Positions 6,503 through 32,182 of a DNA stretch of 35,033 bases are shown here, piece after piece (the stretch's first letter is position 1; the number at the start of each line of letters is the position of its first letter). Position numbers and translations under genes: made by a program. Source of the stretch: Parcubacteria group bacterium GW2011_GWA2_37_10 (lineage in GTDB: Bacteria > Patescibacteriota > Minisyncoccia > Minisyncoccales > Staskawiczbacteraceae). The stretch covers positions 1 to 35,033 of the forward strand of contig LBSQ01000004.1 of assembly GCA_000992015.1 (NCBI GenBank), written 5' to 3'. The notes under the pieces are model-generated. The model ran no database searches and was not told the DNA's origin. It was given only the letters and a program-made list of their open reading frames with translations.

Positions 6503-6531
6503 TAAAATAGAATTATTATAATTTTAAAATT

Positions 6532-6900
6532 ATGCCAAAGAATGTTTTAATCATTGAAGACGACGAATTTTTAAGAGGTTTGATAAACAAAAAACTTACC
6601 GCAGAGGGCTTTAATATGATTTCTGCAATTGACGGGGAAGAAGGAATAAAAAAAGCCAAAGAAGAAAAACCGGATTTGATTTTGCTTGATTTGGTTCTGC
6701 CTAATGTTGACGGTTTTGAAGTTCTGTCAAAAATAAAAGAAGACCCAGTTTCCTCGTCAATTCCCGTGATTATTTTATCCAATCTTAGCCAGAAGGAGGA
6801 CATAGATAAAGGAGTAAAATTGGGAGCAGTTGACTATATTATCAAGGCGCAATTTACTCCGGAAGAAATTGTTGACAAAGTAAAAGCCATTCTGAAATAA
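6532..6900 (+). CDS. single-domain response regulator (CheY-like receiver)
   Basis: IIEDDEF acidic pocket, phospho-acceptor LLDLVLP, PVIILSN, conserved K in DYIIKAQ. No output domain. Confidence 0.9.
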   Translation: MPKNVLIIEDDEFLRGLINKKLTAEGFNMISAIDGEEGIKKAKEEKPDLILLDLVLPNVDGFEVLSKIKEDPVSSSIPVIILSNLSQKEDIDKGVKLGAVDYIIKAQFTPEEIVDKVKAILK

Positions 6901-6906
6901 ATAAAT

Positions 6907-6932
6907 AAAAAAACGCCGAAAGGCGTTTTTTT
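6907..6932. terminator. bidirectional rho-independent terminator
   Basis: aaaaaaACGCCgaaaGGCGTttttttt: GC stem flanked by an A-run and a T-run, between the receiver gene (+) and tRNA-Pro (-). Confidence 0.75.
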
Positions 6933-6936
6933 ATTG

Positions 6937-7007
6937 TCGGGGAAGGGAGAATCGAACTCCCACCATGCGCACCCCATGCGCATATCCTGCCGTTGGACCA
7001 TTCCCCG
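6937..7007 (-). tRNA. tRNA-Pro (anticodon GGG)
   Basis: The reverse complement folds as a cloverleaf: acceptor CGGGGAA/TTCCCCG, D stem GTCC/GGAT, anticodon stem TGCGC/GCGCA with loop AUGGGGU (U33, GGG, G37), T arm GGGAG-TTCGATT-CTCCC, discriminator A. CCA is not encoded. Confidence 0.85.
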
Positions 7008-7046: not shown

Positions 7047-7075
7047 TTGTAATTATTTTGCGATGGGGCTATTAT
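7047..7075 (+). promoter_or_regulatory. candidate sigma70-type promoter of cassette A
   Basis: TTGTAA - 17 nt - TATTAT, about 40 nt upstream of the ATG at 7115. Confidence 0.4.
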
Positions 7076-7114
7076 CTACTTGGAAATCAGAACTTTGAAA
7101 AGGAGACGCGAAAT

Positions 7115-7330
7115 ATGGTGGCTTATGCAAGGCGGGGAAAACTGGGAGGACAAAAAGTACCAGACAATATTGAAGTTTGTTGGGATGCTGTTTTTCCGGC
7201 TGAGGCCAAAAGTTGGCTTGAGAACAACTACGGATTTAAAGTTCAAGTCGTTGACGGCGAAATAGTTGTGCCGCTATTATGTGAATCCGACTGCCAAGAT
7301 TTAGTCTCGCGATGGAATGAAAGAAACTAA
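7115..7330 (+). CDS. small hypothetical protein (71 aa), GC-rich cassette A
   Basis: AAGGAG at 7100-7105, 9 nt before the ATG. Noticeably higher GC than the flanks, and followed by a terminator. The track ORF 7058-7330 is trimmed to the SD-preceded ATG. Confidence 0.6.
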   Translation: MVAYARRGKLGGQKVPDNIEVCWDAVFPAEAKSWLENNYGFKVQVVDGEIVVPLLCESDCQDLVSRWNERN

Positions 7331-7363
7331 AGCGGCGTTTCAGCCGAAAAAACAGACACCTTA

Positions 7364-7390
7364 CCACTGATTTCGGTCAGTGGTTTTTTT
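7364..7390 (+). terminator. rho-independent terminator of cassette A
   Basis: CCACTGAtttcgGTCAGTGG followed by TTTTTTT. Confidence 0.75.
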
Positions 7391-7438
7391 CTGTCAGAAA
7401 ATAAGCTATCACAAAGAAAAATATAATTGTCAAATTTA

Positions 7439-7511: not shown

Positions 7512-7541
7512 ACAGTACCGTGGACTGGTCCACGGTACTGT
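7512..7541 (-). terminator. rho-independent terminator of rpmB
   Basis: ACAGTACCGTGGAC tg GTCCACGGTACTGT. On the minus strand it is followed by TTTTAATTT, and it lies 22 nt past the rpmB stop. Confidence 0.7.
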
Positions 7542-7562: not shown

Positions 7563-7766
7563 TTATACTTTGGATAAGCGTTTAATGCACTTGGCACAAG
7601 CGAGAACTCTTTTGCCTGAAGGCCTGCCTGCGCAGGCAGGCAAACGGACCCATTGCAAATTCGGGTATTTTCTTACTTTAGAAGTTGGGTTGTATTTTCC
7701 TCTTAATTTAACAAGGGTGACTCCCATTGCTGAATGTTTTTTGCAAATTGAACAAATTTTTTCCAT
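7563..7766 (-). CDS. rpmB: 50S ribosomal protein bL28
   Basis: CSICKK...PNLQWVRL...GKRVLACAKCIK matches the bL28 pattern. Contains an extra PACAGRPS segment encoded by a 20-nt palindrome. Confidence 0.85.
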   Translation of the reverse strand: MEKICSICKKHSAMGVTLVKLRGKYNPTSKVRKYPNLQWVRLPACAGRPSGKRVLACAKCIKRLSKV

Positions 7767-9042: not shown

Positions 9043-9513
9043 ATGCGTAGAGCTTACAAAAAACATAAAATAGCGCCAGACCCCATTTATAGCGATGTGG
9101 TGGTTTCGCAATTTGTAAATAAAGTGATGAAGCGGGGCAAAAAAACAACTGCGCAAAAAATTGTTTACAGCGCTTTTAATATAATAAAACAAAAAACAAA
9201 CAAAGAGCCATTAGAAATTTTTAAACAGGCAATTGAAAATGCTTCGCCCATTTTGGAAGTGAAGCCAAAAAGAATTGGAGGAGCCACTTATCAGGTTCCA
9301 ATGGAAGTGAGGGGAGAAAGAAAATTGGCGTTGGCTGTCAAGTGGATTCTTGACGGAGCAAGAGCCAAAAAAGGAAAACCAATGGCTGAAAAGTTAGCGC
9401 AGGAATTAATTGACTGCGTGAATAATCAGGGAAACGCAATTAAAAAGAAAGCAGACACCCACAGAATGGCCGAAGCAAACAAGGCTTTTGCGCACTTTGC
9501 CCGCTCCCGATAA
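9043..9513 (+). CDS. rpsG: 30S ribosomal protein uS7
   Basis: [37 protein letters not shown], and its position after rpsL. Confidence 0.95.
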
Positions 9514-9519
9514 AAAAAG

Positions 9520-9543
9520 ACACGCGAAATCCTTTTCGCGTGT
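9520..9543. terminator. bidirectional terminator between rpsG (+) and cassette B (-)
   Basis: ACACGCGAAA tcct TTTCGCGTGT: perfect 10-bp stem. An A-run precedes it, which reads as a T-run on the minus strand; TTGCTGTTT follows it. Confidence 0.7.
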
Positions 9544-9571: not shown

Positions 9572-9829
9572 TTAGCCGATGACATAAACTTCGGCGCCGC
9601 TCCATCCCTCTACGCTCCACTTTCTAGTATTTTTGTTATAGGTTACCTCGGGGGCGCCGGGTATGTGCAAAACGCAATAGCCAACATAGTTTCTCCGGCT
9701 GGCGATTTCGCCCTCAAAGCCCGTCAAGAGTGAGGCCAAAGGAGATAGTTCGGGTTTGATGCCGAGTCTTACAACCCTTATTTTCTGTCCGCCTTGCAGT
9801 AAGTCCGGCGAAAAAATTTGTTCAAACAT
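9572..9829 (-). CDS. small hypothetical protein (85 aa), GC-rich cassette B, antisense between rpsG and fusA
   Basis: AAGGAG (plus-strand ctcctt, 9837-9842) lies 7 nt before the ATG. A hand count of one 60-nt sample gave about 50% GC. Its own terminator is at 9520-9543. Confidence 0.65.
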   Translation of the reverse strand: MFEQIFSPDLLQGGQKIRVVRLGIKPELSPLASLLTGFEGEIASRRNYVGYCVLHIPGAPEVTYNKNTRKWSVEGWSGAEVYVIG

Positions 9830-9929
9830 AGCTGAACTCCTTGATTGGTGGTGAAAAGGACTAATAAAAATACATTACAAAATAAAATAAAAAAATCGCA
9901 ATGACGAAATAAATATAATTTGAAAATAT

Positions 9930-12038
9930 ATGTCTAGAGAACACGCTTTAGATACGTTAAGAAATATTGGAATTATCGCTCACATTGACGCAGGAAAAAC
10001 TACGTTCTCTGAACGGTTGCTTTTTTATACAGGAGTTTCGCATAAAATTGGAGAAGTGCACGAAGGAGATACAGTTATGGATTGGATGGTTCAGGAAAGA
10101 GAGAGGGGAATTACAATTACCTCGGCCGCCACAACAATGTACTGGAGAAATCATCAGATAAACCTGATTGATACTCCAGGCCACATTGATTTTACAGCAG
10201 AAGTGCAGAGGTCTTTGCGAGTTTTAGACGGCGCAGTTGTTGTTTTTGACGGAGTTGCCGGAGTAGAACCGCAATCTGAAACAGTATGGCGCCAGGCAGA
10301 CAAATATAATGTTCCGCGCATTTGCTTTATCAATAAATTAGACAGAATGGGGGCCAGTTTTGAAAAGAGTTTTCAGTCAATTTTGAATAAATTAACTCCG
10401 AATGCGGTGGCAGTAACCATTCCAATGGGATTGGAAGAAAAACTATCCGGAGTTGTAGATTTAATAAAAATGAAGGCGCTTTATTTTGAGGGAGAAAAGG
10501 GAATTGATGTTGTTGAAAAAGAAATTCCCGAAGAGTGGAAAGTTGAGGCCGAAATATGGCGCAGAAAAATAATTGAAAAAGTTGCCGGCGAAGATAATAC
10601 TTTGACGGAAAAGTTTTTAGAAGGAAAAGAAATTTCAGTTGAGGAAATAAAAAATGTTTTGAGAAAATCAGTTTTAAATTATAAATTGGTGCCGGTATTT
10701 TGCGGAAGCGCCTTGAAAAATAAGGGAGTGCAGACAATTTTAGACGCGGTTGTTGAATTACTGCCTTCGCCGCTGGACGTAGTTTCACAAAAAGGAACCG
10801 ACCCAAAAACCGGAGCTGTAATAGAAAAAAAAGCAGATGACAACGAACCGTTTTCAGCTTTGGTTTTTAAGGTAGCCACAGACCCCTATGTCGGAACTTT
10901 AACTTATTTTAGAGTTTATTCCGGAGCTTTGAATAAAGGTTCTTATGTTTTGAATGCAAATACAGGAGAACAAGAAAGAATTGCCAGAATTTTGAGAATG
11001 CACGCAGACGAAAGGCAGGAGTTAGATGTTATTTATGCGGGCGAAATTGGAGCAACTGTGGGATTAAAAGCAACAAGCACGGGCCACACATTGTGCGACA
11101 AAGACCATCAGGTTATTTTAGAAAAAATTGTATTTCCAGAACCGGTTATCGGAATTAGGGTTGAGCCAAAAACAAAAGCAGACCAGGAAAAACTCATTAT
11201 GTCTATTAGAAAGTTAACCGAAGAAGACCCAACTTTTAGAATTAAGGAAGATATTGAAACCGGCGAAACAATTATTTCCGGCATGGGAGAATTGCATTTG
11301 GATATTATTGCAGACAGATTAAAAAGAGAATTTAAAGTTGAGGCTAATTACGGCAAGCCGCAGGTGGCATATAGAGAAACAATTACAGCCGAAGCAAATG
11401 GAGAAGAAAAATATGTGAGGCAGTCTGGCGGAAAAGGACAATACGGACACGTATTATTAAAAATAAAACCAAAAGAAAGAGGAGCCGGTTTTGAATTTAT
11501 TGATGAAATTAAAGGGGGAGCCATTCCAAAAGAATTTATTAAACCGGTAGAAAAAGGAGTTATTGAAGCGTTAGATAAGGGAATTGTAGCCGGATATACA
11601 ATGGTTGATGTTGAGGTTACATTATATGACGGGAGCTATCACGATGTTGATTCGTCTGAATTCGCTTTTAAAATTGCAGGTTCAATGGCTCTTCAAAAAG
11701 CCGCCAGAGCCGCAAAACCGGTTATTTTAGAGCCGGTTATGAAAATTGAAATTGTAACTCCTGAAAATTTCTTCGGGCAGGTTATTTCTGATGTAAGTTC
11801 AAGAAGAGGAAAAATTGAAGAAACAAGCGAGAGGGTTGGAATGAAAGTTGTTGATGCCTTTGTGCCGTTGTCTGAAACATTCGGATACGCAACATCTTTG
11901 CGTTCGCTTACAGAAGGCAGAGCAAGCGAGCGTGGCAATCTAAGGTTTTTGTGCGTTAACTCTGGATTGCTTCGTCGTTTTACTCCTCGCAATGACAGTT
12001 ACGAGATAATTTTGCAAATAAAAAGCGCCTCGGTCTGA
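9930..12038 (+). CDS. fusA: translation elongation factor G with an aberrant, repeat-derived C-terminus
   Basis: [18 protein letters not shown] and all five domains are recognisable up to ...[11 protein letters not shown]. The last 36 codons ([24 protein letters not shown]...) are read from a P-element copy and a cassette terminator. Confidence 0.85.
11925..11998 (+). repeat. P-element copy P0 (mainly the right half), fused to the fusA 3' end
   Basis: ...GGCAATCT...AACTCTGGATTGCTTCGTCGTTTTACTCCTCGCAATGACAG is close to the right arm of P1 (17155-17220). Confidence 0.7.
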
Positions 12039-12139
12039 AATTTCTGTTTCAGCCCTCGGCGCGCGAGAGTTGCGAGAACTCTTTACAGCCGGCTTTGCGA
12101 AGCCCCTATTGAAGTCTTGCGCAATATTTTTTGCGGGTC

Positions 12140-12427
12140 TCAGTGTCGTTTTAATTTGCGACTCTCTTCGATGAGATCAATAAGGATATCGGCAAGATCG
12201 ACGAACCTTTGCGGCTCGGAAACTTTTTCCGGCGGCTCGGGAATTTCCCGCTTCATGACGGCTTCGTAGATTTTCCGTGGCTCAACCTTGCCGGGTGATG
12301 TTTCGACCAAAGTTTCCGTCTGTTACCAGCCAGTGCTTTCCCAGCCGAACTTGCCGCGCCCGTTCATCGCCATCACTAACGACTTGAGGCAGCCTCTGGA
12401 AACCTCATCGTATTTCCACCTCTTCAT
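12140..12427 (-). pseudogene. GC-rich cassette C: 95-codon frame interrupted by one in-frame TAA
   Basis: AAGGAG (12435-12440 on the plus strand) lies 7 nt before the ATG (12425-12427). Reads MKRWKYDEV...STGW, then TAA (12323-12325), then QTETLVE...ESRKLKRH and a stop at 12140-12142. Confidence 0.5.
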
Positions 12428-12487
12428 TGTAACGCTCCTTAAAATAGGGGTTGAGATGTCAAAAAGCGAACTTTGACCCGATTTTTA

Positions 12488-12516
12488 ATTATGCACCCGA
12501 TATGGGTATTTGTCAA
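12488..12516 (-). promoter_or_regulatory. candidate promoter of cassette C
   Basis: On the minus strand, TTGACA (12511-12516) - 17 nt - CATAAT (12488-12493). Confidence 0.45.
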
Positions 12517-13075: not shown

Positions 13076-13110
13076 ACAATAACATTATTATAAATTAAAC
13101 GAAGCAGGGC

Positions 13111-13161
13111 ATATCCTTCGCCTGCGGGCTCAGGATGATTTACTCGCTTCGCTCATAAATC
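13111..13161 (+). repeat. R1 leader element, copy 1 (tuf)
   Basis: ATCCT-TCG-CCTGCGGG-CTC-AGGAT hairpin, mini-ORF ATG ATT TAC TCG CTT CGC TCA TAA (13135-13158), then ATC and the tuf ATG at 13162. Confidence 0.8.
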
Positions 13162-14358
13162 ATGGCAACAGAAAAATTTGAGAGGTCTAAACCTCACGTA
13201 AACATTGGTACCATTGGCCACGTAGACCATGGAAAAACCACATTGTCAGCCGCAATTATGAAGGTTTCAAAATTGCGCGGTTTTAAGTCTTCAGACAAAA
13301 ACGTTGACCAAATTGACGCTTCGCCTGAAGAAAAGGCAAGAGGGGTGACAATTTCTATTACACATTTGGAATGCGAGACTCCAAAAAGGCACTATGCTCT
13401 AATTGACTGCCCCGGACACGCTGACTACATTAAAAATATGATTACGGGAGCCGCTCAAATGGACGGCGGAATTTTGTTAGTTTCAGCTCCAGACGGACCT
13501 ATGCCGCAAACCAAAGAGCACATTTTGTTAGCCCGCCAAGTTGGCTTGCCGAGCTTGGTTGTGTTTATGAACAAGTGCGACATGGTTGATGACCCTGAAA
13601 TTTTGGACTTAGTTGAATCTGAGGTAAGAGAACTTTTAAAGAAAAATAAATATCCTGGAGATGAAACTCCTATTATAAGAGGTTCTGCCCTGAAAGCTTT
13701 AGAAGCCACATCGGTTGATGATCCGGCCGTAAAACCTATTATTGAATTAATGGATGCTGTTGATAATTTTGTTAAGGAGCCCGTAAGAGAACTAGATAAA
13801 CCGTTTGCAATGGCAATTGAAGACGTGTTTTCAATTGAAGGAAGGGGAACAGTTGCAACAGGAAGAATTGAAAGAGGAGTTATAAAACCAAACGAAGAGG
13901 TTGAAATAATCGGTATAAAGCCAACACAAAAAACAGTTGTTGTTTCGGTTGAAATGTTCCAGAAATCGCTTGATGAAGGAAGAGCCGGCGACAATGTCGG
14001 AATTTTGTTAAGGGGTTTGAAAAAAGAGGATATTGAAAGAGGCCAAGTAATCTGCAAGCCCGGAAGCATTACTCCTCACACTGAATTTGAAGGAGAAGTT
14101 TATGTTTTATCTAAAGAGGAAGGCGGAAGGCACACCCCATTTTTTACAGGATACAAACCTCAGCTTTATATCCGAACATCAGACATAACAGGTGACGTAA
14201 CTTTGCCAGAAGGAACAGAAATGGTAATGCCAGGAGATACAGCTAATTTGAAAGTTAAATTGATTGCGCCGATCGCTCTGGAGGAAAAAGGAAATTTTGC
14301 TATTAGAGAAGGAGGCAAAACAGTGGGAGCAGGAGTGGTAACTAAAATAACCAAGTAG
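13162..14358 (+). CDS. tuf: translation elongation factor Tu
   Basis: [28 protein letters not shown]; full-length EF-Tu. Confidence 0.97.
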
Positions 14359-14954: not shown

Positions 14955-15028
14955 GGGCCCGTAGTTTCATATAGTTAAAACTTTGCCTTTGACAAGCAAC
15001 GTAGCGGGTGCAACTCCCGCCGGGTCCA
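14955..15028 (+). tRNA. atypical tRNA-like gene; isotype ambiguous
   Basis: Acceptor GGGCCCG/CGGGTCC, D stem GTTT/AAAC, T arm GCGGG-TGCAACT-CCCGC, discriminator A. The anticodon stem TTGC(C)/(A)GCAA closes on a C.A mismatch, with loop UUUGACA. The 7-nt parse gives anticodon UGA with C37. A 9-nt loop parse puts GAC between U33 and A37. Confidence 0.5.
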
Positions 15029-15035
15029 CCCCAAA

Positions 15036-15441: not shown

Positions 15442-16059
15442 ATGAAATTTATATTAGGTCAAAAAATAGGAATGTCCCAGTTGTTTGATAAAGACGGTAA
15501 AATGATACCGGTTACTTTGGTTTCGGCCGGGCCTTGCTATGTTCTGCAGAAAAAAACAAAAGAACCCTTCGACGCGGCTCATGGCAAGAAAGACGGATAT
15601 GACGCAGTTCAGATTGGATTTGAGAAAATTACAAAAATGAATAAGCTCAGAAAAAGCTGGAAAGCGAGACCGTATAAATATGTTAAGGAATTTAGAGCGC
15701 ATAATTCGGAAACAAAAGTGGGCGATGAAATTAATGTATCTGCTTTTTCTGAAGGTGAAAAAGTAAAGGTTTCGGGAATGTCAAAGGGAAAAGGTTTTCA
15801 AGGCGGAGTCAAAAAACACGGATTTTCAGGAAGAAATGCCACTCACGGAGTAAAACACGAACACAGAACAATTGGTTCAACAGGATGTCGTTTTCCCCAG
15901 CACGTAATGAAGGGAAGAAAAATGCCCGGACGCATGGGATATGAAAGAATATCGGTTAAAAATTTAAAAATAATGAAAGTTGATAAGGAGAATAATTTAT
16001 TAGTATTAAAAGGGGCGGTTCCAGGGCACAAAGGAACATTGCTTGAGATCCGAGTTTAA
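15442..16059 (+). CDS. rplC: 50S ribosomal protein uL3
   Basis: MKFILGQKIGMSQLFDKDGKMIPVT is the canonical uL3 N-terminus, so the track start at 15376 is rejected. GKGFQGGVKKHGF motif. Contains an in-frame GC-rich insert (PFDAAHGK). Confidence 0.93.
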   Translation: MKFILGQKIGMSQLFDKDGKMIPVTLVSAGPCYVLQKKTKEPFDAAHGKKDGYDAVQIGFEKITKMNKLRKSWKARPYKYVKEFRAHNSETKVGDEINVSAFSEGEKVKVSGMSKGKGFQGGVKKHGFSGRNATHGVKHEHRTIGSTGCRFPQHVMKGRKMPGRMGYERISVKNLKIMKVDKENNLLVLKGAVPGHKGTLLEIRV

Positions 16060-16075
16060 TATTTTACAAAAAAAG

Positions 16076-16121
16076 AGCGCCTCGGCTGGAACTCGATAAA
16101 TCAAATTTCAGCCAAGGCGCT
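16076..16121 (-). terminator. terminator hairpin of cassette D
   Basis: AGCGCCTCGGCTG - 20 nt - CAGCCAAGGCGCT (13 bp, 1 mismatch). On the minus strand it is followed by CTTTTTTTGT, and it lies 10 nt past the cassette D stop. Confidence 0.65.
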
Positions 16122-16131
16122 TAACTGACGG

Positions 16132-16395
16132 TCACACGTTTGTGAATGGCACGGACCGCCCTTCATGGGGTCTTTCGCCTGCGAAAGTCTGGGATTCCCT
16201 CCTCGTCGATGTCGGCAGAGACGCGGGGTCTGGTTTTTCGAGAATGACCTCGATGGTGTCACTCTTGATGCCGGCAATTGCGAAGCCCTGATCTTGCTCA
16301 GTCTTGAGCCTCTCTAAGGATTCGATACTGAAGCAATCCATAAAGTGCTCCGTAAAGCAATGCTTGATTCGTAGCTGGATTGTTTTCCACGACAT
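16132..16395 (-). CDS. small hypothetical protein (87 aa), GC-rich cassette D, antisense between rplC and rplD
   Basis: CAGGAG (16402-16407 on the plus strand) lies 6 nt before the internal ATG (16393-16395). The longer track start (16476) would run through its own promoter. Confidence 0.65.
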   Translation of the reverse strand: MSWKTIQLRIKHCFTEHFMDCFSIESLERLKTEQDQGFAIAGIKSDTIEVILEKPDPASLPTSTRRESQTFAGERPHEGRSVPFTNV

Positions 16396-16447
16396 AGTGA
16401 ACTCCTGTAGAAATGCAGGGTAATGCAGAGTGAAGACCAATAATAAA

Positions 16448-16476
16448 AGTATAATAGAATATAAAAGAAAAGTCAA
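16448..16476 (-). promoter_or_regulatory. candidate promoter of cassette D
   Basis: On the minus strand, TTGACT (16471-16476) - 17 nt - TATACT (16448-16453). It overlaps a plus-strand TATAAT/TAGAAT (16450-16460) that could serve rplD. Confidence 0.55.
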
Positions 16477-17130: not shown

Positions 17131-17220
17131 CGTCATTGCGAGGAGCCCGCAGGCGACGCGGCAATCTGGAAACTCTGGAATTGCTTCGTCAGTCGCTAAA
17201 GCTCCTTCCTCGCAATGACA
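17131..17220. repeat. P element copy P1: about 90-nt imperfect palindrome
   Basis: CGTCATTGCGAGGAGC...GCGACGCGGCAATCT / ...ATTGCTTCGTC...CCTCGCAATGACAG. The outer 12-bp arms GTCATTGCGAGG/CCTCGCAATGAC are perfect. Confidence 0.8.
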
Positions 17221-18630: not shown

Positions 18631-18706
18631 CGTTATTGCGAGGAGCGTAGCGACGAAGCAATCTAAACAATGCGTGAGATTGCTTCGTTACCGCTCGCAA
18701 TGACGG
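18631..18706. repeat. P element copy P2: about 76-nt imperfect palindrome
   Basis: CGTTATTGCGAGGAGCGTAGCGACGAAGCAATCT - 12 nt - AGATTGCTTCGTTACCGCTCGCAATGACGG. Confidence 0.8.
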
Positions 18707-21404: not shown

Positions 21405-21458
21405 GGAATATCCCTCGCCTGCGGGCTCGGGATGATTTTTTCACTTCGTTCACAAATC
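21405..21458 (+). repeat. R1 leader element, copy 2 (rplX)
   Basis: ATCCC-TCG-CCTGCGGG-CTC-GGGAT hairpin. The mini-ORF ATG (21432) ATT TTT TCA CTT CGT TCA has CAA instead of TAA, so it reads through into rplX. Confidence 0.8.
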
Positions 21459-21803
21459 ATGAAAATTAAAAAAGGCGATAACGTTTTGATAATATCAGGC
21501 AAAGATAAGGGCAGGACCGGCAAGGTGTCAAGGGCTTTTCCTAAAGAAGGGGGTATTTTAGTAGAAGGAATTAATTTAAAAAAGAAGCACGTAAGACCGA
21601 AAAAGGAAGGAGGAAAAGGGCAGGTCGTTGACATTCCGGCAGCGATAGAAGTTTCAAATGTTAAAATAATTTGCCCGAAATGCGGAAAGGCAGTGAGAGT
21701 TGGATATAAAATTGACCCTTCGGCAGGCTTCGGCGCGGCTCAGGGCAAGCGCTCAGGGCAAGCGAAAAAGAGAATTTGTAGAAAATGTAAGCAAGAAGTA
21801 TAA
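21459..21803 (+). CDS. rplX: 50S ribosomal protein uL24 (in-frame GC-rich insert near the C-terminus)
   Basis: MKIKKGDNVLIISGKDKGRTGKV is the canonical uL24 N-terminus. The track start at 21432 would add MIFSLRSQI from the R1 mini-ORF. Confidence 0.9.
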   Translation: MKIKKGDNVLIISGKDKGRTGKVSRAFPKEGGILVEGINLKKKHVRPKKEGGKGQVVDIPAAIEVSNVKIICPKCGKAVRVGYKIDPSAGFGAAQGKRSGQAKKRICRKCKQEV

Positions 21804-22392: not shown

Positions 22393-22453
22393 ACACTTCC
22401 GCTTCGGTAAAAACCTCAGTGTAAGTGTGATTTACTCGCTTCGCTCATAAATC
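22393..22453 (+). repeat. R1 leader element, copy 3 (rpsN)
   Basis: ACACT...AGTGT outer stem (alternative CACTT...AAGTG), inner CCGcttCGG. Mini-ORF GTG ATT TAC TCG CTT CGC TCA TAA (22427-22450), then ATC and the ATG at 22454. Confidence 0.75.
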
Positions 22454-22639
22454 ATGGCAAAAAAATCACAGGAAATAAAAGCAAAAAAGAAGCCTAAATA
22501 TCCATCGAGAAAAATTCGGCGCTGTTTTAAATGCGGAAGGCGGCATGGTTTTATGAGAGCATTCGGACTATGCAGAATATGCTTTAGGGAATTAGCAAAT
22601 AAAGGCGAAATTCCCGGCGTTAAAAAATCTTCTTGGTAA
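22454..22639 (+). CDS. rpsN: 30S ribosomal protein uS14, zinc-binding short form
   Basis: 61 aa with CFKCGRRHG...CRICFRE. Confidence 0.95.
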
Positions 22640-24781: not shown

Positions 24782-24840
24782 GTAACCCTTCGTCCCGCCT
24801 TATGGGACTCAGGGTGATTTATTCACTTCGTTCATAAATC
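24782..24840 (+). repeat. R1 leader element, copy 4 (rplO)
   Basis: ACCCT-TCG-TCCCgccttatGGGA-CTC-AGGGT. Mini-ORF GTG ATT TAT TCA CTT CGT TCA TAA (24814-24837), then ATC and the ATG at 24841. Confidence 0.8.
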
Positions 24841-25272
24841 ATGCAAATACACGAACTAAAACCAAAGCATAAAAACAGGGATAAAAAGCGGGTCGGCAGA
24901 GGAGGAAAAAAGGGTACTTATTCCGGAAAAGGAAATAAAGGCCAAAGTTCAAGAGCCGGCAGAAAAATGGTGCCCATAATCAGGGAATTGATAAAAAGGT
25001 ATCCAAAATTAAGAGGATACAGAAGATTTGTTCTGAAAGATTTTTCAGTTGTAGTAAGCCTTGACGTCCTAGAAAAAAATTCAAAAAACGGCGAAATAAT
25101 CAATCCTGAAAATTTGATTAAAAATGGAATTGTCCGTATGATAAAAGGAAAGGTTCCAAAAATTAAGATATTGGGTTCCGGAAAACTTACAAAACCGCTT
25201 ACTGTTGAAAATTGTAAAGTTTCAAAGTCGGCGAAAGACGCAATTGAAAAAGCCGGCGGTATTATAAAGTAA
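24841..25272 (+). CDS. rplO: 50S ribosomal protein uL15
   Basis: LKPKHKNRDKKRVGRGGKKGTYSGKGNKGQ. It follows rpsE directly, so there is no rpmD. Confidence 0.94.
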   Translation: MQIHELKPKHKNRDKKRVGRGGKKGTYSGKGNKGQSSRAGRKMVPIIRELIKRYPKLRGYRRFVLKDFSVVVSLDVLEKNSKNGEIINPENLIKNGIVRMIKGKVPKIKILGSGKLTKPLTVENCKVSKSAKDAIEKAGGIIK

Positions 25273-25297: not shown

Positions 25298-25672
25298 ATG
25301 GAAATTACTGATAAAATTAAAAATATAATTGATGAAATCGTCAGGCAATACAGGCCAGAAAAAATCATACTTTTTGGTTCTTTTGTATGGGGAAATCCAA
25401 ACAAAGATAGCGATATTGATTTATTTATAATAAAACAGAGTCAGAAAAGTAGAATTGAGCGCCAAAGAGAATTGAGGTTAAAACTTTTTGGCTCTGACTT
25501 CCCCGCAATGGATATTTTGGTTTACACCCCAGAGGAAGTTGAAAAAAGCATCAATGAATATAAAAATCTTTTTATAGAAGATATTTTGCGCCATGGAAAG
25601 GTTCTTTATTCTAAACCAGGAAGCCTATTTAATGTAGCGCTTCCTAAAAGGCGATTAAATATTTTGCATTAA
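25298..25672 (+). CDS. nucleotidyltransferase-domain protein (MNT-type, putative antitoxin)
   Basis: LFGSFVWGNPNKDSDIDL is the GSxxxGx(n)DxD motif of the Pol-beta NTase fold. Small size and pairing with a HEPN gene. Confidence 0.8.
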   Translation: MEITDKIKNIIDEIVRQYRPEKIILFGSFVWGNPNKDSDIDLFIIKQSQKSRIERQRELRLKLFGSDFPAMDILVYTPEEVEKSINEYKNLFIEDILRHGKVLYSKPGSLFNVALPKRRLNILH

Positions 25673-25678
25673 ATTATT

Positions 25679-26062
25679 ATGCTAACAGATTATGTAAAAA
25701 GCTGGTTTCAGCGGGCAGATGAAGATTTAGCGCTTATTGAAGTTATCTTAAAGGAGGAATCTTTTTCTCCTAACCCAGTTTGTTTTCATGCTCAGCAGGC
25801 GGCAGAAAAATATCTGAAAGGATTTCTAGCTTATCACGATTTGCACACGAGAAAAATTCACGATTTGGAAGCGCTTGTTGAGGACTGCGTAAAAATTGAT
25901 AAATCTTTTGGGGCGCTAAAAGATAGCGCAGGATTTTTAGATCAGTTTTATATTGGATCGCGCTACCCAGATGATTATATAGAATTTTCCCGAAATGACG
26001 CAAAAAAAGCATACGAAGCGGCAATTAAAATCAAAAATTTTATTTTAGGAAAAATTAAATAA
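25679..26062 (+). CDS. HEPN-domain protein (putative toxin partner of the MNT gene)
   Basis: All-helical, 127 aa, with AEKYLKGFL...HDLEAL...GSRYPDD features typical of HEPN (PF05168-like). Starts 6 nt after the MNT stop. Confidence 0.75.
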   Translation: MLTDYVKSWFQRADEDLALIEVILKEESFSPNPVCFHAQQAAEKYLKGFLAYHDLHTRKIHDLEALVEDCVKIDKSFGALKDSAGFLDQFYIGSRYPDDYIEFSRNDAKKAYEAAIKIKNFILGKIK

Positions 26063-26182: not shown

Positions 26183-26237
26183 GGCATACCCTTCGCCTGC
26201 GGGACTCAGTGTGATTTTCTCGCTTTGCTCGTAAATC
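26183..26237 (+). repeat. R1 leader element, copy 5 (secY)
   Basis: ACCCT-TCG-CCTGCGGGA-CTC-AGTGT. Mini-ORF GTG ATT TTC TCG CTT TGC TCG TAA (26211-26234), then ATC and the ATG at 26238. Confidence 0.8.
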
Positions 26238-27515
26238 ATGTGGTACGATAAAATATTATTTTTATTTAAAAGCAAAGACCTTAGAAAAAAATTTCTTATT
26301 GTAATTTTTCTTTTTGTTGTTTTTAGGATAGCTGCCAATATACCTATTCCGGGAATTGGACTGGAAAACTTAAGGAAGTTTTTTGCCGAAAATCAGGTTT
26401 TCGGTTTGTTAAATATATTTTCAGGCGGAGCTCTGAGTAATTTTTCCATTGTTTTGTTGGCGCTTGGGCCATATATTACAGCTACGATTATTTTGCAATT
26501 GCTGACAATGATTTTTCCTGCGCTGGAAAGAATATACAAAGAAGAGGGCGAAGCCGGCAGGCAAAAATTTAATCAATACTCAAGGCTTTTAACCATTCCG
26601 CTAGCCGTTTTTGAAGGTTACGGAATGATAACTTTATTCCAACGCCAAGGAATAATTTCATCTCTTCCAATATCTGTTTTGATAAGTTCAATTCTAACAA
26701 TTACCGCGGGCGCAATGTTTATGATGTGGATCGGTGAAATTATTACAGAGCAGGGAATGGGAAACGGAATTTCACTTCTGATCTTTGCAGGAATAGTTGC
26801 AACACTGCCGATTAATATTTTTCAAACATTTGTCGCATGGGATCCGTCAAAAATTCCCTCGTATTTTTTATTTTTTGTATTATCCTTGGTTATTATAGCC
26901 GGTGTAGTTTTAATTACTGAAGCCAGAAGAAATATTCCGGTTTCTTATGCAAAAAGGGTAAGGGGAAATAAAATGTACGGCGGCGTTTCTACATATCTGC
27001 CTTTAAATGTTAATCCGGCCGGAGTTATTCCAATTATTTTTGCTCTCTCTATACTTTTGTTTCCGGGAATGATAGCAAGTTTTTTGGGCGGAACCCCCGG
27101 ATTTGTTGGAACAGTTGCAACTGCCGCCGGAGCTTTTTTCAACAACATTTGGGTGCACGGAATATTATATTTTTTGCTGGTTATTTTATTCACCTATTTT
27201 TATACCGCGGTCACTTTTGACCCAAAAACAATTGCTGAAAATTTGCAAAAAATGGGCGGTTTTATCCCGGGCGTAAGGCCAGGAAATTCAACGGCCGTTT
27301 TTCTAAAGCATATACTAAACAGAGTTTTGTTTACCGGGGCCATATTTTTGGGACTAATTGCTGTTCTGCCGTCAATTATTGCCGGAGCGACAGGCGTAAC
27401 CGGTTTTACATTCTTAATCGGAGGAACATCTCTTTTAATCGTGGTTTCAGTTGTTTTAGACACAATGCGCCAAATTAACGCGCAATTGCAAATGCGCGAA
27501 TACGACACTTTCTAA
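26238..27515 (+). CDS. secY: preprotein translocase subunit SecY
   Basis: 10 TM helices, LGPYITATIILQLL, GEIITEQGMGNGISLLIFAGI. Confidence 0.96.
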   Translation: MWYDKILFLFKSKDLRKKFLIVIFLFVVFRIAANIPIPGIGLENLRKFFAENQVFGLLNIFSGGALSNFSIVLLALGPYITATIILQLLTMIFPALERIYKEEGEAGRQKFNQYSRLLTIPLAVFEGYGMITLFQRQGIISSLPISVLISSILTITAGAMFMMWIGEIITEQGMGNGISLLIFAGIVATLPINIFQTFVAWDPSKIPSYFLFFVLSLVIIAGVVLITEARRNIPVSYAKRVRGNKMYGGVSTYLPLNVNPAGVIPIIFALSILLFPGMIASFLGGTPGFVGTVATAAGAFFNNIWVHGILYFLLVILFTYFYTAVTFDPKTIAENLQKMGGFIPGVRPGNSTAVFLKHILNRVLFTGAIFLGLIAVLPSIIAGATGVTGFTFLIGGTSLLIVVSVVLDTMRQINAQLQMREYDTF

Positions 27516-28957: not shown

Positions 28958-29050
28958 AAAAGTAGTAGTCTAAAACCAGCATACGAAACTGTTTTCCAGA
29001 GTTGGATTCTTCCTTCTCGGCAGTTTCACAAAATAGAAACAGAGGCGTTT

Positions 29051-29365
29051 ATGTTGCTCGTCAGTATGCTTCTTGTCTGCTTCGCCATAGTTTTAGTGGT
29101 GTCATTAGTCCAAAACCTCACTGTGGCTCGAAAAGAAATTGAGCTATGGAAGGAAATCGCACGCATCGCCGGTGTAAAACAGTTCCACGAGCTGGCCGAT
29201 GGTGAATATCAGATGGGTGTGTTTTTTGGAAAAGTTGGCCAGTGCATGATTTATAGAATTTACGAGGTGGCCAGGCTAGGCGTGGACGACGAAGCAGTTG
29301 TTGTTTTCCCGGCAGGCGAATATATAGAATCGGAATTTACCGTTAAAAACGGCAAAATATCGTAG
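29051..29365 (+). CDS. small membrane-anchored hypothetical protein (104 aa), GC-rich cassette E
   Basis: AGAGG lies 5 nt before the ATG. N-terminal TM helix MLLVSMLLVCFAIVLVVSLV. Higher GC than the flanks; terminator downstream. Confidence 0.55.
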   Translation: MLLVSMLLVCFAIVLVVSLVQNLTVARKEIELWKEIARIAGVKQFHELADGEYQMGVFFGKVGQCMIYRIYEVARLGVDDEAVVVFPAGEYIESEFTVKNGKIS

Positions 29366-29455: not shown

Positions 29456-29488
29456 CCCTGTTTGGATTCGTTTGAACAGGGCTTTTTT
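29456..29488 (+). terminator. rho-independent terminator of cassette E
   Basis: CCCTGTTTggattcgtttGAACAGGG, then C and TTTTTT. Confidence 0.7.
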
Positions 29489-29518
29489 ATTGATTTTTTT
29501 ATTTCAGTTTTGTTTATT

Positions 29519-29552
29519 GGTAGCGTTTTTGTCGATCGACAAATTTACTACC
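29519..29552. repeat. 34-bp palindrome, upstream copy (imperfect), overlapping the promoter of the PaaX-like gene
   Basis: GGTAGCGTTTTTGTCGA|TCGACAAATTTACTACC. The left half is identical to the copy at 30167-30183. Confidence 0.8.
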
Positions 29553-29615: not shown

Positions 29616-30158
29616 ATGAAAAACTCTGTAATTGAGGAAATTTTATTGCATTTATACGATTCTATTGATTATGGTTTTAGTTATAGAGCAAAGAAAGGGC
29701 TTTGGATTTCGGAATATTTTGACCATTGGAAAAATGAAGTTAGTTCAAACAAAATAAAAGATGGAATCAGGGATTTAAATAAACAAAAATTTATAAAGAA
29801 AAAAGAAAATTATAACGGTACGGTGCTCGTTTCCCTTACAGAAAAAGGGATGCTGAGGGCGCTAAATATTATTTTTAGAAGGCTTGAAAACAGGAAAGAA
29901 AAATGGGATGGAAAATGGAGAATATTTGCTTTTGATATTCCGGAAGAATGCAGGAAGGGAAGGAACGCATTAAGGTACAGATTCAAGTCGGGTGGATTTT
30001 ACGAGCTCCAGAAAAGCTTGTTTGTTTACCCATACGATTGCCAAAAAGAAGTAGCGGCGCTGGTCAAGATGTTCAAATTGGAAAAATATGTTAGATTTGT
30101 TTTGGCGGACTTTATTGATAATGAAGAGCGTTTGAAAAATAGATATAAATTGAATTGA
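29616..30158 (+). CDS. PaaX-like regulator: N-terminal winged-helix-like part plus a C-terminal Cas2/VapD-fold domain
   Basis: WDGKWRIFAFDIPEECRKGRNALRYRFKSGGFYELQKSLFVYPYD matches the PaaX_C / Cas2-like ferredoxin-fold signature as recalled from memory. No cas1 or CRISPR array nearby. Confidence 0.55.
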   Translation: MKNSVIEEILLHLYDSIDYGFSYRAKKGLWISEYFDHWKNEVSSNKIKDGIRDLNKQKFIKKKENYNGTVLVSLTEKGMLRALNIIFRRLENRKEKWDGKWRIFAFDIPEECRKGRNALRYRFKSGGFYELQKSLFVYPYDCQKEVAALVKMFKLEKYVRFVLADFIDNEERLKNRYKLN

Positions 30159-30165
30159 TAATTGG

Positions 30166-30201
30166 CGGTAGCGTTTTTGTCGATCGACAAAAACGCTACC
30201 G
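30166..30201. repeat. 36-nt perfect palindrome, downstream copy (may also act as a terminator hairpin)
   Basis: CGGTAGCGTTTTTGTCGA|TCGACAAAAACGCTACCG, starting 8 nt after the PaaX-like stop. A T-rich tract follows about 12 nt later. Confidence 0.85.
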
Positions 30202-31595: not shown

Positions 31596-31715
31596 CAAAT
31601 TTTTGCGCAACACCGGGTGTTACGCAATCTTGACTTTAGAAAAATAAAGTGCATGATAGAAACTAGTATCTCTCCCTTAACCTTTTTTGACCTTTGACAA
31701 AAAGGAGAAAACGTT

Positions 31716-32078
31716 ATGCCAGTGAGAACTATCATGATTTTTGGTTCACAAGAGGTTATGGCCCCTCTCGTCGAGCCGGGTGAGTTTTATCGTGGCAAAA
31801 GGGTGAACATCGAGGTAATCAAGGTGGCGACGGACCAAGACACCCCTTTGATTGTCCGCGAGGCTTTGGTGGGTCTCGTGATTTCTACCATCTTTGACTA
31901 TAAGCAAATGGGCAAAAAACTGGGAACTCCAGTTGGCTCCCGTTTGTCGTATGTCAAAGAGGTGGTTGAGACCCTTAAAGTCGCTGGAAAAACCGAGGTA
32001 GCTCAAGTCCTAGAGGCCATGAACAGCGGAGAGCTCGCCCTGTATAATTTCAACGAAGACGAGTTCGTTATATCTTGA
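31716..32078 (+). CDS. small hypothetical protein (120 aa), GC-rich cassette F; possible C-terminal LuxR/GerE-like HTH
   Basis: AAGGAG (31702-31707) lies 8 nt before the ATG. KQMGKKLGTPVGSRLSYVKEVVETLKVAGKTEVAQVLEAMNSG loosely fits the GerE-type HTH pattern (judged by eye only). Confidence 0.6.
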   Translation: MPVRTIMIFGSQEVMAPLVEPGEFYRGKRVNIEVIKVATDQDTPLIVREALVGLVISTIFDYKQMGKKLGTPVGSRLSYVKEVVETLKVAGKTEVAQVLEAMNSGELALYNFNEDEFVIS

Positions 32079-32145: not shown

Positions 32146-32182
32146 GACCCGCGCCTTTATAGGTGGGCGGGTCTCTTTTTTT
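32146..32182 (+). terminator. rho-independent terminator of cassette F
   Basis: GACCCGCgcctttataggtggGCGGGTC, then TC and TTTTTTT. Confidence 0.75.

Follow-up and report, generated by a model that had tools for sequence, protein, structure and literature searches.

Six small gene cassettes, designated A to F, occupy spacers of the str–S10–spc ribosomal-protein superoperon and nearby genes in Parcubacteria bacterium GW2011_GWA2_37_10, an ultra-small, Staskawiczbacteria-like groundwater organism of the Candidate Phyla Radiation (CPR) whose named close relatives are Candidatus Staskawiczbacteria. The window—the whole 35,033-nucleotide (nt) stretch of DNA analyzed here—is contig US35_C0004 (proteins KKQ234xx). 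Each cassette is built from a Shine–Dalgarno (SD) motif, a small open reading frame (ORF), and a strong unidirectional intrinsic terminator, with its own promoter recognizable in A, C, D, and F. We interpret these units as probably being moron-like autonomous accessory minigenes settled in permissive spacers of the superoperon and its surroundings. The evidence partly supports an earlier reading of them as repeated foreign acquisitions: Their style is foreign, their presence varies, and some have a phage link, but several have long resided at their sites.

Composition and Start Signals

Guanine-plus-cytosine (GC) content is 0.44 in A, 0.49 in B, 0.51 in C, 0.515 in D, 0.45 in E, and 0.485 in F, compared with 0.376 for the window overall. 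Ranked against windows of the same length, B, C, D, and F fall between the 97th and 98.6th percentiles, E at the 93rd, and A at the 88th. Cassette-bearing spacers have GC contents of 0.38–0.49, whereas every other spacer longer than 150 nt lies at 0.22–0.32. GC at third codon positions (GC3) is 0.50–0.56 in B, D, E, and F against 0.21–0.46 in host genes; for the extended A ORF it is just 0.38. The raised GC proposed by an initial annotation of this DNA therefore holds, weakly for A and E, and the departure from background is strongest for B, C, D, and F.

Start signals differed markedly between cassettes and host genes. Computed anti-SD duplex energies range from −5.8 to −8.9 kcal/mol for the six cassettes, compared with a mean of −0.66 and a minimum of −4.0 kcal/mol for 39 host genes. 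An SD core of at least 5 nt precedes five of the six cassettes (E has GAGG only) and none of the 39 host genes; at random ATGs, one would be expected by chance in 5.2% of cases. SD-to-ATG spacing is 6–9 nt across the cassettes and is conserved. Both sides of the contrast first drawn by eye are borne out: All six cassettes are SD-led, E being the weakest case (AGAGG, 4-nt core), and the low-GC genes lack an AGGAG-like motif. When intergenic ORFs of 25 or more amino acids (aa) preceded by an SD core of 5 nt or longer were sought blind, A, B, C, D, and F were recovered and no hit fell outside the six cassettes; the additional hits were short ORFs nested in the same cassette regions, one of them inside E.

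Leader statistics were compiled from the 25 nt upstream of 427 conserved-gene starts in 28 related species (loci L021–L048), together with the host genes of the window. Host leaders are rich in A and poor in G: A reaches 69% at position −3 and 66% at −6, and G stays at 4–9% between −7 and −1. SD cores of at least 5 nt occur at 13 of the 427 starts in the relatives (3%), below the chance rate. The adenine peaks form a Kozak-like pattern that is reminiscent of the one described for Bacteroidia (PMC13000457).

Anatomy of the Six Cassettes

A hairpin and U-run follow all six cassettes (fold z-scores −2.6 to −7.0), bearing out the stem-loop terminator predicted for each. Sigma-70-like promoter matches were recovered for A, C, and D, where they had been expected, and additionally for F. 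The antisense placement of B, C, and D inside the str/S10 cluster was likewise confirmed in coordinates and ORFs, with B in the rpsG–fusA spacer, C in the fusA–tuf spacer, and D in the rplC–rplD spacer.

Cassette D runs along the minus strand from a promoter-like site (TTGACT-17-TATACT, 16448–16476, 10/12 match) through a CAGGAG SD (16402–16407, 6 nt before the ATG) and an 87-aa ORF (16132–16395) with a conserved core at approximately residues 19–58. It ends in an intrinsic terminator with a 13+7 bp hairpin and U7 (16068–16121; −31.9 kcal/mol, z −7.0) located 9 nt past the rplC stop codon. Cassette C, also on the minus strand, comprises a promoter-like site (TTGACA-17-CATAAT, 12488–12516, 11/12), a TAAGGAG SD (12435–12441), an ORF (12140–12427) that is intact at 94 aa elsewhere, and a GCGCC...GGCGC terminator with U-run (12020–12062) that overlaps the fusA 3′ end. 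Cassette B, again on the minus strand, has an AAGGAG SD (9837–9842), an 85-aa ORF (9572–9829) that is a species-restricted ORFan with three strain alleles, and a terminator (9510–9543, z −3.6) abutting the rpsG stop codon.

The remaining three cassettes lie on the plus strand. A has a promoter-like site (TTGTAA-17-TATTAT, 7047–7075, 9/12), an AAGGAG SD (7100–7105, 9 nt before the ATG), a 71-aa ORF with the motif WDAVFPxEAKxW (7115–7330), and a terminator (7363–7391, z −4.3). E has a weak AGAGG SD (29041–29045), a 104-aa ORF encoding an N-terminal transmembrane helix and a conserved domain, ELPDGEY...FTVKNGKI (29051–29365), and a terminator (29456–29491, z −3.5). F has a promoter-like site (TTGACT-16-CATGAT, 31630–31657, 9/12), an AAGGAG SD (31702–31707), a 120-aa ORF (31716–32078), and a terminator (32146–32182, z −3.3).

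Around the cassettes, the plus strand encodes a response regulator and an M50 peptidase, followed by rpsL, rpsG, fusA, tuf, rpsJ, rplC, rplD, and the remaining S10/spc cluster; secY, adk, and map; and a PaaX-like gene, tpiA, an RNaseH-like gene, and alaS. The only RNA genes in the window are tRNA-Pro (6937–7007, minus strand) and tRNA-Ser (14955–15030, plus strand).

Coding Evidence and Protein Families

The six genes represent six unrelated families, as the initial annotation had judged, with no sequence likeness among them at the DNA or protein level, flanks included. An exhaustive HMMER search of the concatenated A–F proteins against 1.8 billion cluster representatives returned, beyond each protein's own near-identical cluster, ~80 representatives for F, 8 for E, 3 for A, 2 for C, and 1 each for D and B. 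One of the two C relatives is the intact 94-aa allele, the sole relative of B is 94% identical to it, and a further hit, P0030, is D itself, called at 69 aa. Searches of Pfam, PHROGs, NCBIfam, and PADLOC (the last at E ≤ 0.1) gave no significant match to any of the six proteins, in line with the earlier impression that they fall outside recognized families, and none matches a Pfam or NCBIfam ribosomal protein model. Known noncoding RNAs were rejected as candidates because no Rfam family matched the cassettes at the gathering threshold or at E ≤ 1.

The homologues that were found are informative for individual cassettes. A aligns end to end with P0122 at 40% identity (pairwise E 9e-15). The contig encoding P0122 (L107) is phage-like: It spans 46.6 kb of co-oriented, mostly unannotated small genes, encodes a Phage_portal protein and a sigma factor, and has a GC content of 0.425; an SD core of 4 nt or more precedes 16 of 29 genes. 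F belongs to a genuine family of ~80 clusters whose alignment shows the motif PL.VREALVGL..TIFT. Its structure model is confident (predicted local distance difference test, pLDDT, 94), with no fold match at E ≤ 0.001 in a PDB profile search or in Foldseek searches of PDB and BFVD; word-indexed protein searches with F alone or with the F alignment added few further members.

D has a relative in locus L017 that differs from it at many synonymous positions within residues 19–58, with a nonsynonymous divergence (dN) of 0.34 and a saturated synonymous divergence (dS). The last 29 codons of D are in a different frame from L017, so that GCCGACATCGACGA, a run of nucleotides common to both, encodes different residues in each. 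The C-terminal tail of D is predicted to be disordered, and the pLDDT of its structure prediction is 63. The B frame is open in all three alleles, one of which carries an in-frame two-codon indel. C is broken, as first noticed, by an in-frame TAA at 12323–12325 that is CAA in other strains.

C may also be DUF4177-like (PF13783). It shares the N-terminal pattern KKWEY...G...GWEL with that family, and C-type orthologues in L027 and L040 score 20.2 bits (E 7e-4) and 17.0 bits (E 7e-3). Both scores lie under the gathering cut-off of 25, and neither the C of the window nor its 79% identical relative P0029 has a Pfam match to DUF4177.

Because their junctions recur in more than 10 independent assemblies and homologous proteins exist for all but B, A to F are real genes, not assembly artefacts. 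The search for families and structures proposed by the initial annotation thus succeeded in providing homologues for A, C, D, E, and F and failed to place any of the six in a known family, or F in a known fold. C and D are unannotated in the GenBank record, and annotators should be cautioned that both are missing from public annotation.

Junctions in Strains and Related Species

The A and B junctions are present in ten independent ENA/JGI assemblies at 97–100% identity, the C junction in six further assemblies, and the D junction in L011. With the same junctions assembled independently more than 10 times in ENA and JGI data, assembly chimerism—raised at the outset as a risk—is excluded.

For comparison across species, we examined the rplC region from 80 GTDB species, 28 of which are Staskawiczbacteria-like, with ribosomal protein L3 54–80% identical by tblastn. 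No homologue of A, B, D, E, or F was detectable within 10 kb of rplC in these 28 species. The comparison of empty junctions covers the A, B, and D sites, those of E and F lying outside the fetched loci, and all three are empty in most relatives. The rplC–rplD spacer, 435 nt in the window, measures 1–23 nt in 21 of 27 measurable relatives and 40–459 nt in the other six. The rpsG–fusA spacer, 416 nt in the window, ranges from 7 nt (L023) to 830 nt, and the fusA–tuf spacer from approximately 150 nt to 2.1 kb. In L034, nothing occupies the A site, and tRNA-Pro adjoins a conserved small reverse-strand gene. The distribution of D is patchy, since the window and L017, the D-bearing genomes, each have closer relatives with spacers of 4–10 nt in the L3 tree.

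Other species do have related genes at these junctions. In L017, with L3 72% (BLASTP) to 75% (codon alignment) identical, a D-like gene lies antisense just after rplC; it is 55% identical over the conserved core, has a terminator that is 94% identical in nucleotides, and has a GC content of 0.52 versus 0.39 for L3. An E-like gene directly follows map in L106 (GC 0.45 versus 0.36) and is preceded by the SD GAAGGAG. C-like genes with the pattern KKWE...GWE...KREIPE lie antisense in the fusA–tuf spacer of L027, L035, and L040. Judging from this synteny, at least three cassettes—C, D, and E—did not enter this genome recently. The emptiness of the A, B, and D junctions in most relatives favors foreign acquisition, and the C-, D-, and E-type genes at the same spacers in other species argue against a recent origin.

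The spacers of relatives contain comparable occupants. Small ORFs with canonical SDs are found in their rpsG–fusA, fusA–tuf, and rplC–rplD spacers, many with TTGACA-type promoters and GCGCC...GGCGC-U-run terminators, and all inspected SD-led spacer ORFs are antisense. Other occupants include a zinc ribbon (L022) and membrane peptides in the rplC–rplD spacer (L039, L043).

Two further observations concern the fusA–tuf spacer. In L041, a stand-alone 131-aa RNA polymerase alpha C-terminal domain protein lies antisense within it (6524–6919, minus strand; Pfam E 5e-11). In L027, two different SD-led ORFs (1161–1478 and 2144–2356, both minus strand) have an identical ~70-nt promoter/leader module and similar terminators, which suggests modular reuse of expression signals.

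Evolutionary Rates and Strain Variation

C-, D-, and E-type genes diverge two to five times faster than their neighbors while keeping the SD and raised GC. Identity is 55% for D against 75% for L3, and 45% for E against 85% for map. Although D and E have reached saturation at synonymous sites, raised GC and SDs persist in both; composition is therefore being maintained or renewed, rather than simply reflecting a recent transfer that has not ameliorated. A recent transfer between the window and L017 was considered as the cause of the 94% identical D terminator and rejected, because the D ORF next to it has diverged more than L3 has.

C-type orthologues and the E-like gene of L106 retain the AAGGAG core while the bases around it differ. 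This retention shows that the SD is under selection and, we infer, functional in this clade.

Variation among near-clonal strains is uneven. A and D are invariant, A being the same in 10 strain loci. The B allele of L001 carries 14 nt and 10 aa differences, with none in the rpsG and M50 peptidase genes at the nucleotide level. In C, 21% of residues differ between strains with a dN/dS of ~1.5, while the 3′ untranslated region (UTR) and terminator are 99% identical and the flanking fusA is 100% identical. The strain divergence of B and C points to diversifying selection or to recombinational import of divergent alleles.

Origin and Competing Explanations

If the cassettes are moron-like minigenes, as we favor, each would be transcribed alone and translated through SD/anti-SD pairing, and the host ribosome would then retain a usable anti-SD on which core genes do not rely. 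Antisense is the only orientation seen among the within-operon cassettes (B, C, and D), and probably the only one tolerated there, since a terminator in the sense direction would be polar on downstream ribosomal protein genes. Cassettes may enter, persist, and be exchanged or replaced by recombination through the highly conserved flanking genes; ribosomal genes, as the most conserved DNA in the genome, would be plausible homology arms. Gain and exchange of this kind would fit the patchiness across species, the replacement of alleles between strains, and a composition that stays unlike that of the host.

The source pool would be SD-using, of higher GC, and partly phage-associated. F is instructive here. 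Its homologues elsewhere have native GC and no SD in the SD-less L101 (GC 0.32) and L108 (GC 0.45), and carry an SD in the SD-using L019, L020, and L102 (GC 0.43–0.56). Because family members elsewhere match the GC and SD habit of their own genome, the F of the window is out of place in both. As for function, the amino-acid hypervariation of B and C between strains, the fast evolution, and the decay of C and D suggest dispensable conflict-type roles, e.g., in phage or host interaction, rather than housekeeping.

The initial annotation had read the pattern as repeated acquisition of foreign minigenes, perhaps from a phage or a higher-GC partner. Non-host composition and SDs, patchy junctions, the phage-like homologue of A, and the mismatch of F speak for acquisition, and C, D, and E as old residents speak against it. 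The suggested source gains from the homologue of A on a portal-bearing contig, although no donor emerged: GenBank phages yielded no match to A or F, plasmids none to F, and IMG/VR none to A. The window itself contains no phage genes, the cassette flanks being rpsL, rpsG, fusA, tuf, rpsJ, rplC, rplD...secY, adk, map, tpiA, and alaS.

Several further observations weigh, with the missing donor, against the explanation that we prefer. The GC elevation of A and E is modest, and no promoter is recognizable for B and E. The patchiness of D relies on a single-gene neighbor-joining tree of L3. No common ends, terminal inverted repeats, target duplications, or recombinase mark the cassettes. The CCTCCT anti-SD motif was detected in just 48% of Parcubacteria 16S genes by Tsurumaki et al. 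(PMC9297842), so with approximately half of these genes lacking it, and with no 16S gene in the window or in any fetched locus, SD-dependent translation here is a presumption. Finally, the synteny of C, D, and E across species, together with saturated dS, also fits old vertical residents, in which case their persisting high GC3 would need a separate explanation.

This last point leads to the strongest alternative, which we regard as possible but doubtful: The cassettes would be native small genes, inherited vertically from a common ancestor and lost many times, with high GC and SDs imposed by functional constraint (for example, GC-rich structured mRNAs needing an SD). The C-, D-, and E-type genes at the same junctions elsewhere, the conserved SD cores and D terminator, and the lack of any mobility signature all suit such a history. 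It would require repeated precise deletions, however, because the nearest relatives of both D-bearing genomes have 4–10 nt spacers. The species restriction of B, the phage gene among A's only distant relatives, and the divergent B and C alleles in otherwise identical strain backgrounds also count against it. So does the F family, which elsewhere adopts host composition and SD habit, so that the mismatch here is not a property of the family.

That the cassettes are components of toxin–antitoxin or defense systems of known kinds is improbable. Small size, fast evolution, and strain variability are typical of conflict genes, and a nucleotidyltransferase/HEPN pair lies nearby in the same superoperon. 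Each cassette is nonetheless a single gene without a partner, none of the six matches PADLOC, Pfam, NCBIfam, or PHROGs, and neither PDB nor BFVD contains a structure matching F.

Less probable still, and in our estimate very unlikely, is a reading of the GC-rich blocks as noncoding structured RNAs or regulatory elements of ribosomal protein operons with incidental ORFs. The terminator and 3′ UTR are more conserved than the ORF in C (between strains) and in D (between species), C is a pseudogene here, the D tail is frameshifted, and neither is annotated in GenBank. Set against these points are the Rfam result, the protein-level homologues of all cassettes but B, which show conserved motifs and synonymous substitutions, the confident F model, and the conserved 6–9 nt spacing between SD and ATG.

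Assembly chimeras or contaminant fragments joined into the CPR contig, suggested by composition unlike the flanks and by the metagenome-assembled source, have a negligible probability given that the A, B, C, and D junctions were assembled independently in at least 16 ENA/JGI loci at 97–100% identity and that D- and E-type genes stand at the same junctions in other species.

Comparison with Known Systems

Phage morons are single accessory genes of lambdoid and Mu-like phages (definition: PMC4378225), and the favored minigene reading borrows its name from them. Like morons, A, C, D, and F are single ORFs with a promoter of their own on one side and a factor-independent terminator on the other (for B and E, only the terminator is recognizable), and insertion is between genes that are adjacent in related genomes (rplC–rplD, rpsG–fusA, and the A site). 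Nucleotide composition is unlike that of the neighbors, weakly so for A and E; no recombinase target or insertion signature is evident; and function is often accessory. Unlike morons, the cassettes reside on a cellular chromosome, in the ribosomal-protein superoperon of a CPR bacterium rather than in a phage or prophage, and three of them are long-term residents of their sites across species. Their initiation mode also differs from that of the host (SD versus A-rich leader), which is not part of the moron concept.

Integron gene cassettes resemble the present units in being small accessory genes of one ORF each, diverse in composition, that gather at defined sites. The six differ in having no attC-like common repeat in their spacers and no integrase in the window, in occupying six dispersed sites, and in carrying terminators throughout and their own promoters in at least four cases. 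No cassette is flanked by terminal inverted repeats or a target-site duplication, unlike miniature inverted-repeat transposable elements (MITEs) and insertion-sequence-type elements. A shared mobile-element backbone was rejected for want of common ends or repeats.

Bacteroidia offer a parallel in translation. Their initiation is SD-blind and relies on upstream adenines, and rpsU retains a strong SD for autoregulation (PMC7797042, PMC9976891, PMC13000453, PMC13000457). The two cases are alike in the genome-wide absence of SDs, with upstream adenines at core genes, and in the tiny set of genes with strong SDs that stands out against it, as in the rpsU/bS21 autoregulation of Flavobacterium johnsoniae. 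They are unlike in that the SD-led genes here are six unrelated, GC-rich, fast-evolving accessory ORFs, none of them rpsU. In Bacteroidia, 16S rRNA keeps its anti-SD, which is sequestered by bS21, bS18, and bS6; the same arrangement in a CPR host would be conjecture.

Other Elements in the Window

Two families of short repeats occupy spacers of the same superoperon. A two-hairpin element of ~57–69 nt (...CCTTCGCCTGCGGGCTCAGG..GATTTACTCGCTTCGCTCATAAATC) is present in five copies, at 13108–13164, 21405–21461, 22400–22456, 24787–24843, and 26184–26240, which end exactly at the ATG of tuf, rplX, rpsN, rplO, and secY. One copy folds with a z-score of −2.4, and the element has no Rfam match; an extra ~67-nt copy lies between rpsL and rpsG in L003, L004, and L010. 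The element may serve as a mobile leader, as a processing site, or in translation. A MITE-like palindrome with terminal inverted repeats GTCATTGCGAGG / CCTCGCAATGAC occurs at 17132–17219 (rplD–rplW spacer) and 18632–18704 (rplB–rpsS spacer), with partial copies at 11985–11996 and 9894–9905 (7 matches versus 1.4 expected). In L002, L005, L007, and L009, an extra ~106-nt copy sits exactly at 9895/9896. The 3′ end of fusA in the window (~11930–12038) is unlike that of L011 and L012 and contains a half copy of this palindrome, giving a different fusA C terminus.

Another local difference concerns rplC, where 20 of the 23 differences between the window and L011 over 2.2 kb fall in a 90-nt stretch (15867–15957) that looks like a short recombination tract.

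Further genes were noted in the spacers. An MNT-type nucleotidyltransferase gene (25298–25672) and a HEPN gene (25679–26062) lie in the sense direction between rplO and secY (Pfam E 1e-12 and 9e-25). The pair is AT-rich (GC 0.32–0.36) and has no SD, so that not all insertions in the superoperon combine high GC with an SD. A 34-nt self-complementary sequence, GGTAGCGTTTTTGTCGATCGACAAAAACGCTACC, at 29519–29552 and 30167–30200, brackets an ORF with a PaaX/Cas2-like domain (29616–30158), which may be another inserted unit. On the minus strand, a conserved 67-aa ORF (7563–7766; MEKICSICKK...PNLQWVRL...) has its own terminator (7512–7541). It resembles ribosomal protein L28 by eye, yet has no Pfam match at E ≤ 0.001; it is conserved in L022 and L034 and is often missed or placed on the wrong strand in gene calls.

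Implications

CPR bacteria (Patescibacteria) account for a large share of bacterial diversity, and their gene flow and translation initiation are poorly understood. A more speculative extension of the minigene reading, which we hold only tentatively and consider rather unlikely as a whole, is a two-tiered translation system in which core genes have SD-less, A-rich leaders, as in Bacteroidia, and fast-turnover minigenes are SD-led. The phages supplying these minigenes might likewise keep strong SDs, the units would be phage-derived or phage-mimicking, and ribosomal genes would act as homology arms between species. If this were true, cassettes could exploit an idle anti-SD for privileged access to ribosomes, or be gated by ribosome heterogeneity (e.g., bS21-free ribosomes). 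If the host 16S rRNA instead lacks an anti-SD, conserved SDs before conserved ORFs would pose a paradox, which would be even more interesting.

At this locus, the most conserved gene cluster of a tiny genome serves as a recurrent home for self-contained, fast-evolving minigenes with a non-host start signal. The cassettes offer a handle on whether SD-less Parcubacteria possess a working anti-SD and on how foreign DNA enters streamlined genomes, for which homologous recombination through conserved flanks is one candidate route. They may likewise provide small-protein candidates for phage or host interaction in episymbionts.

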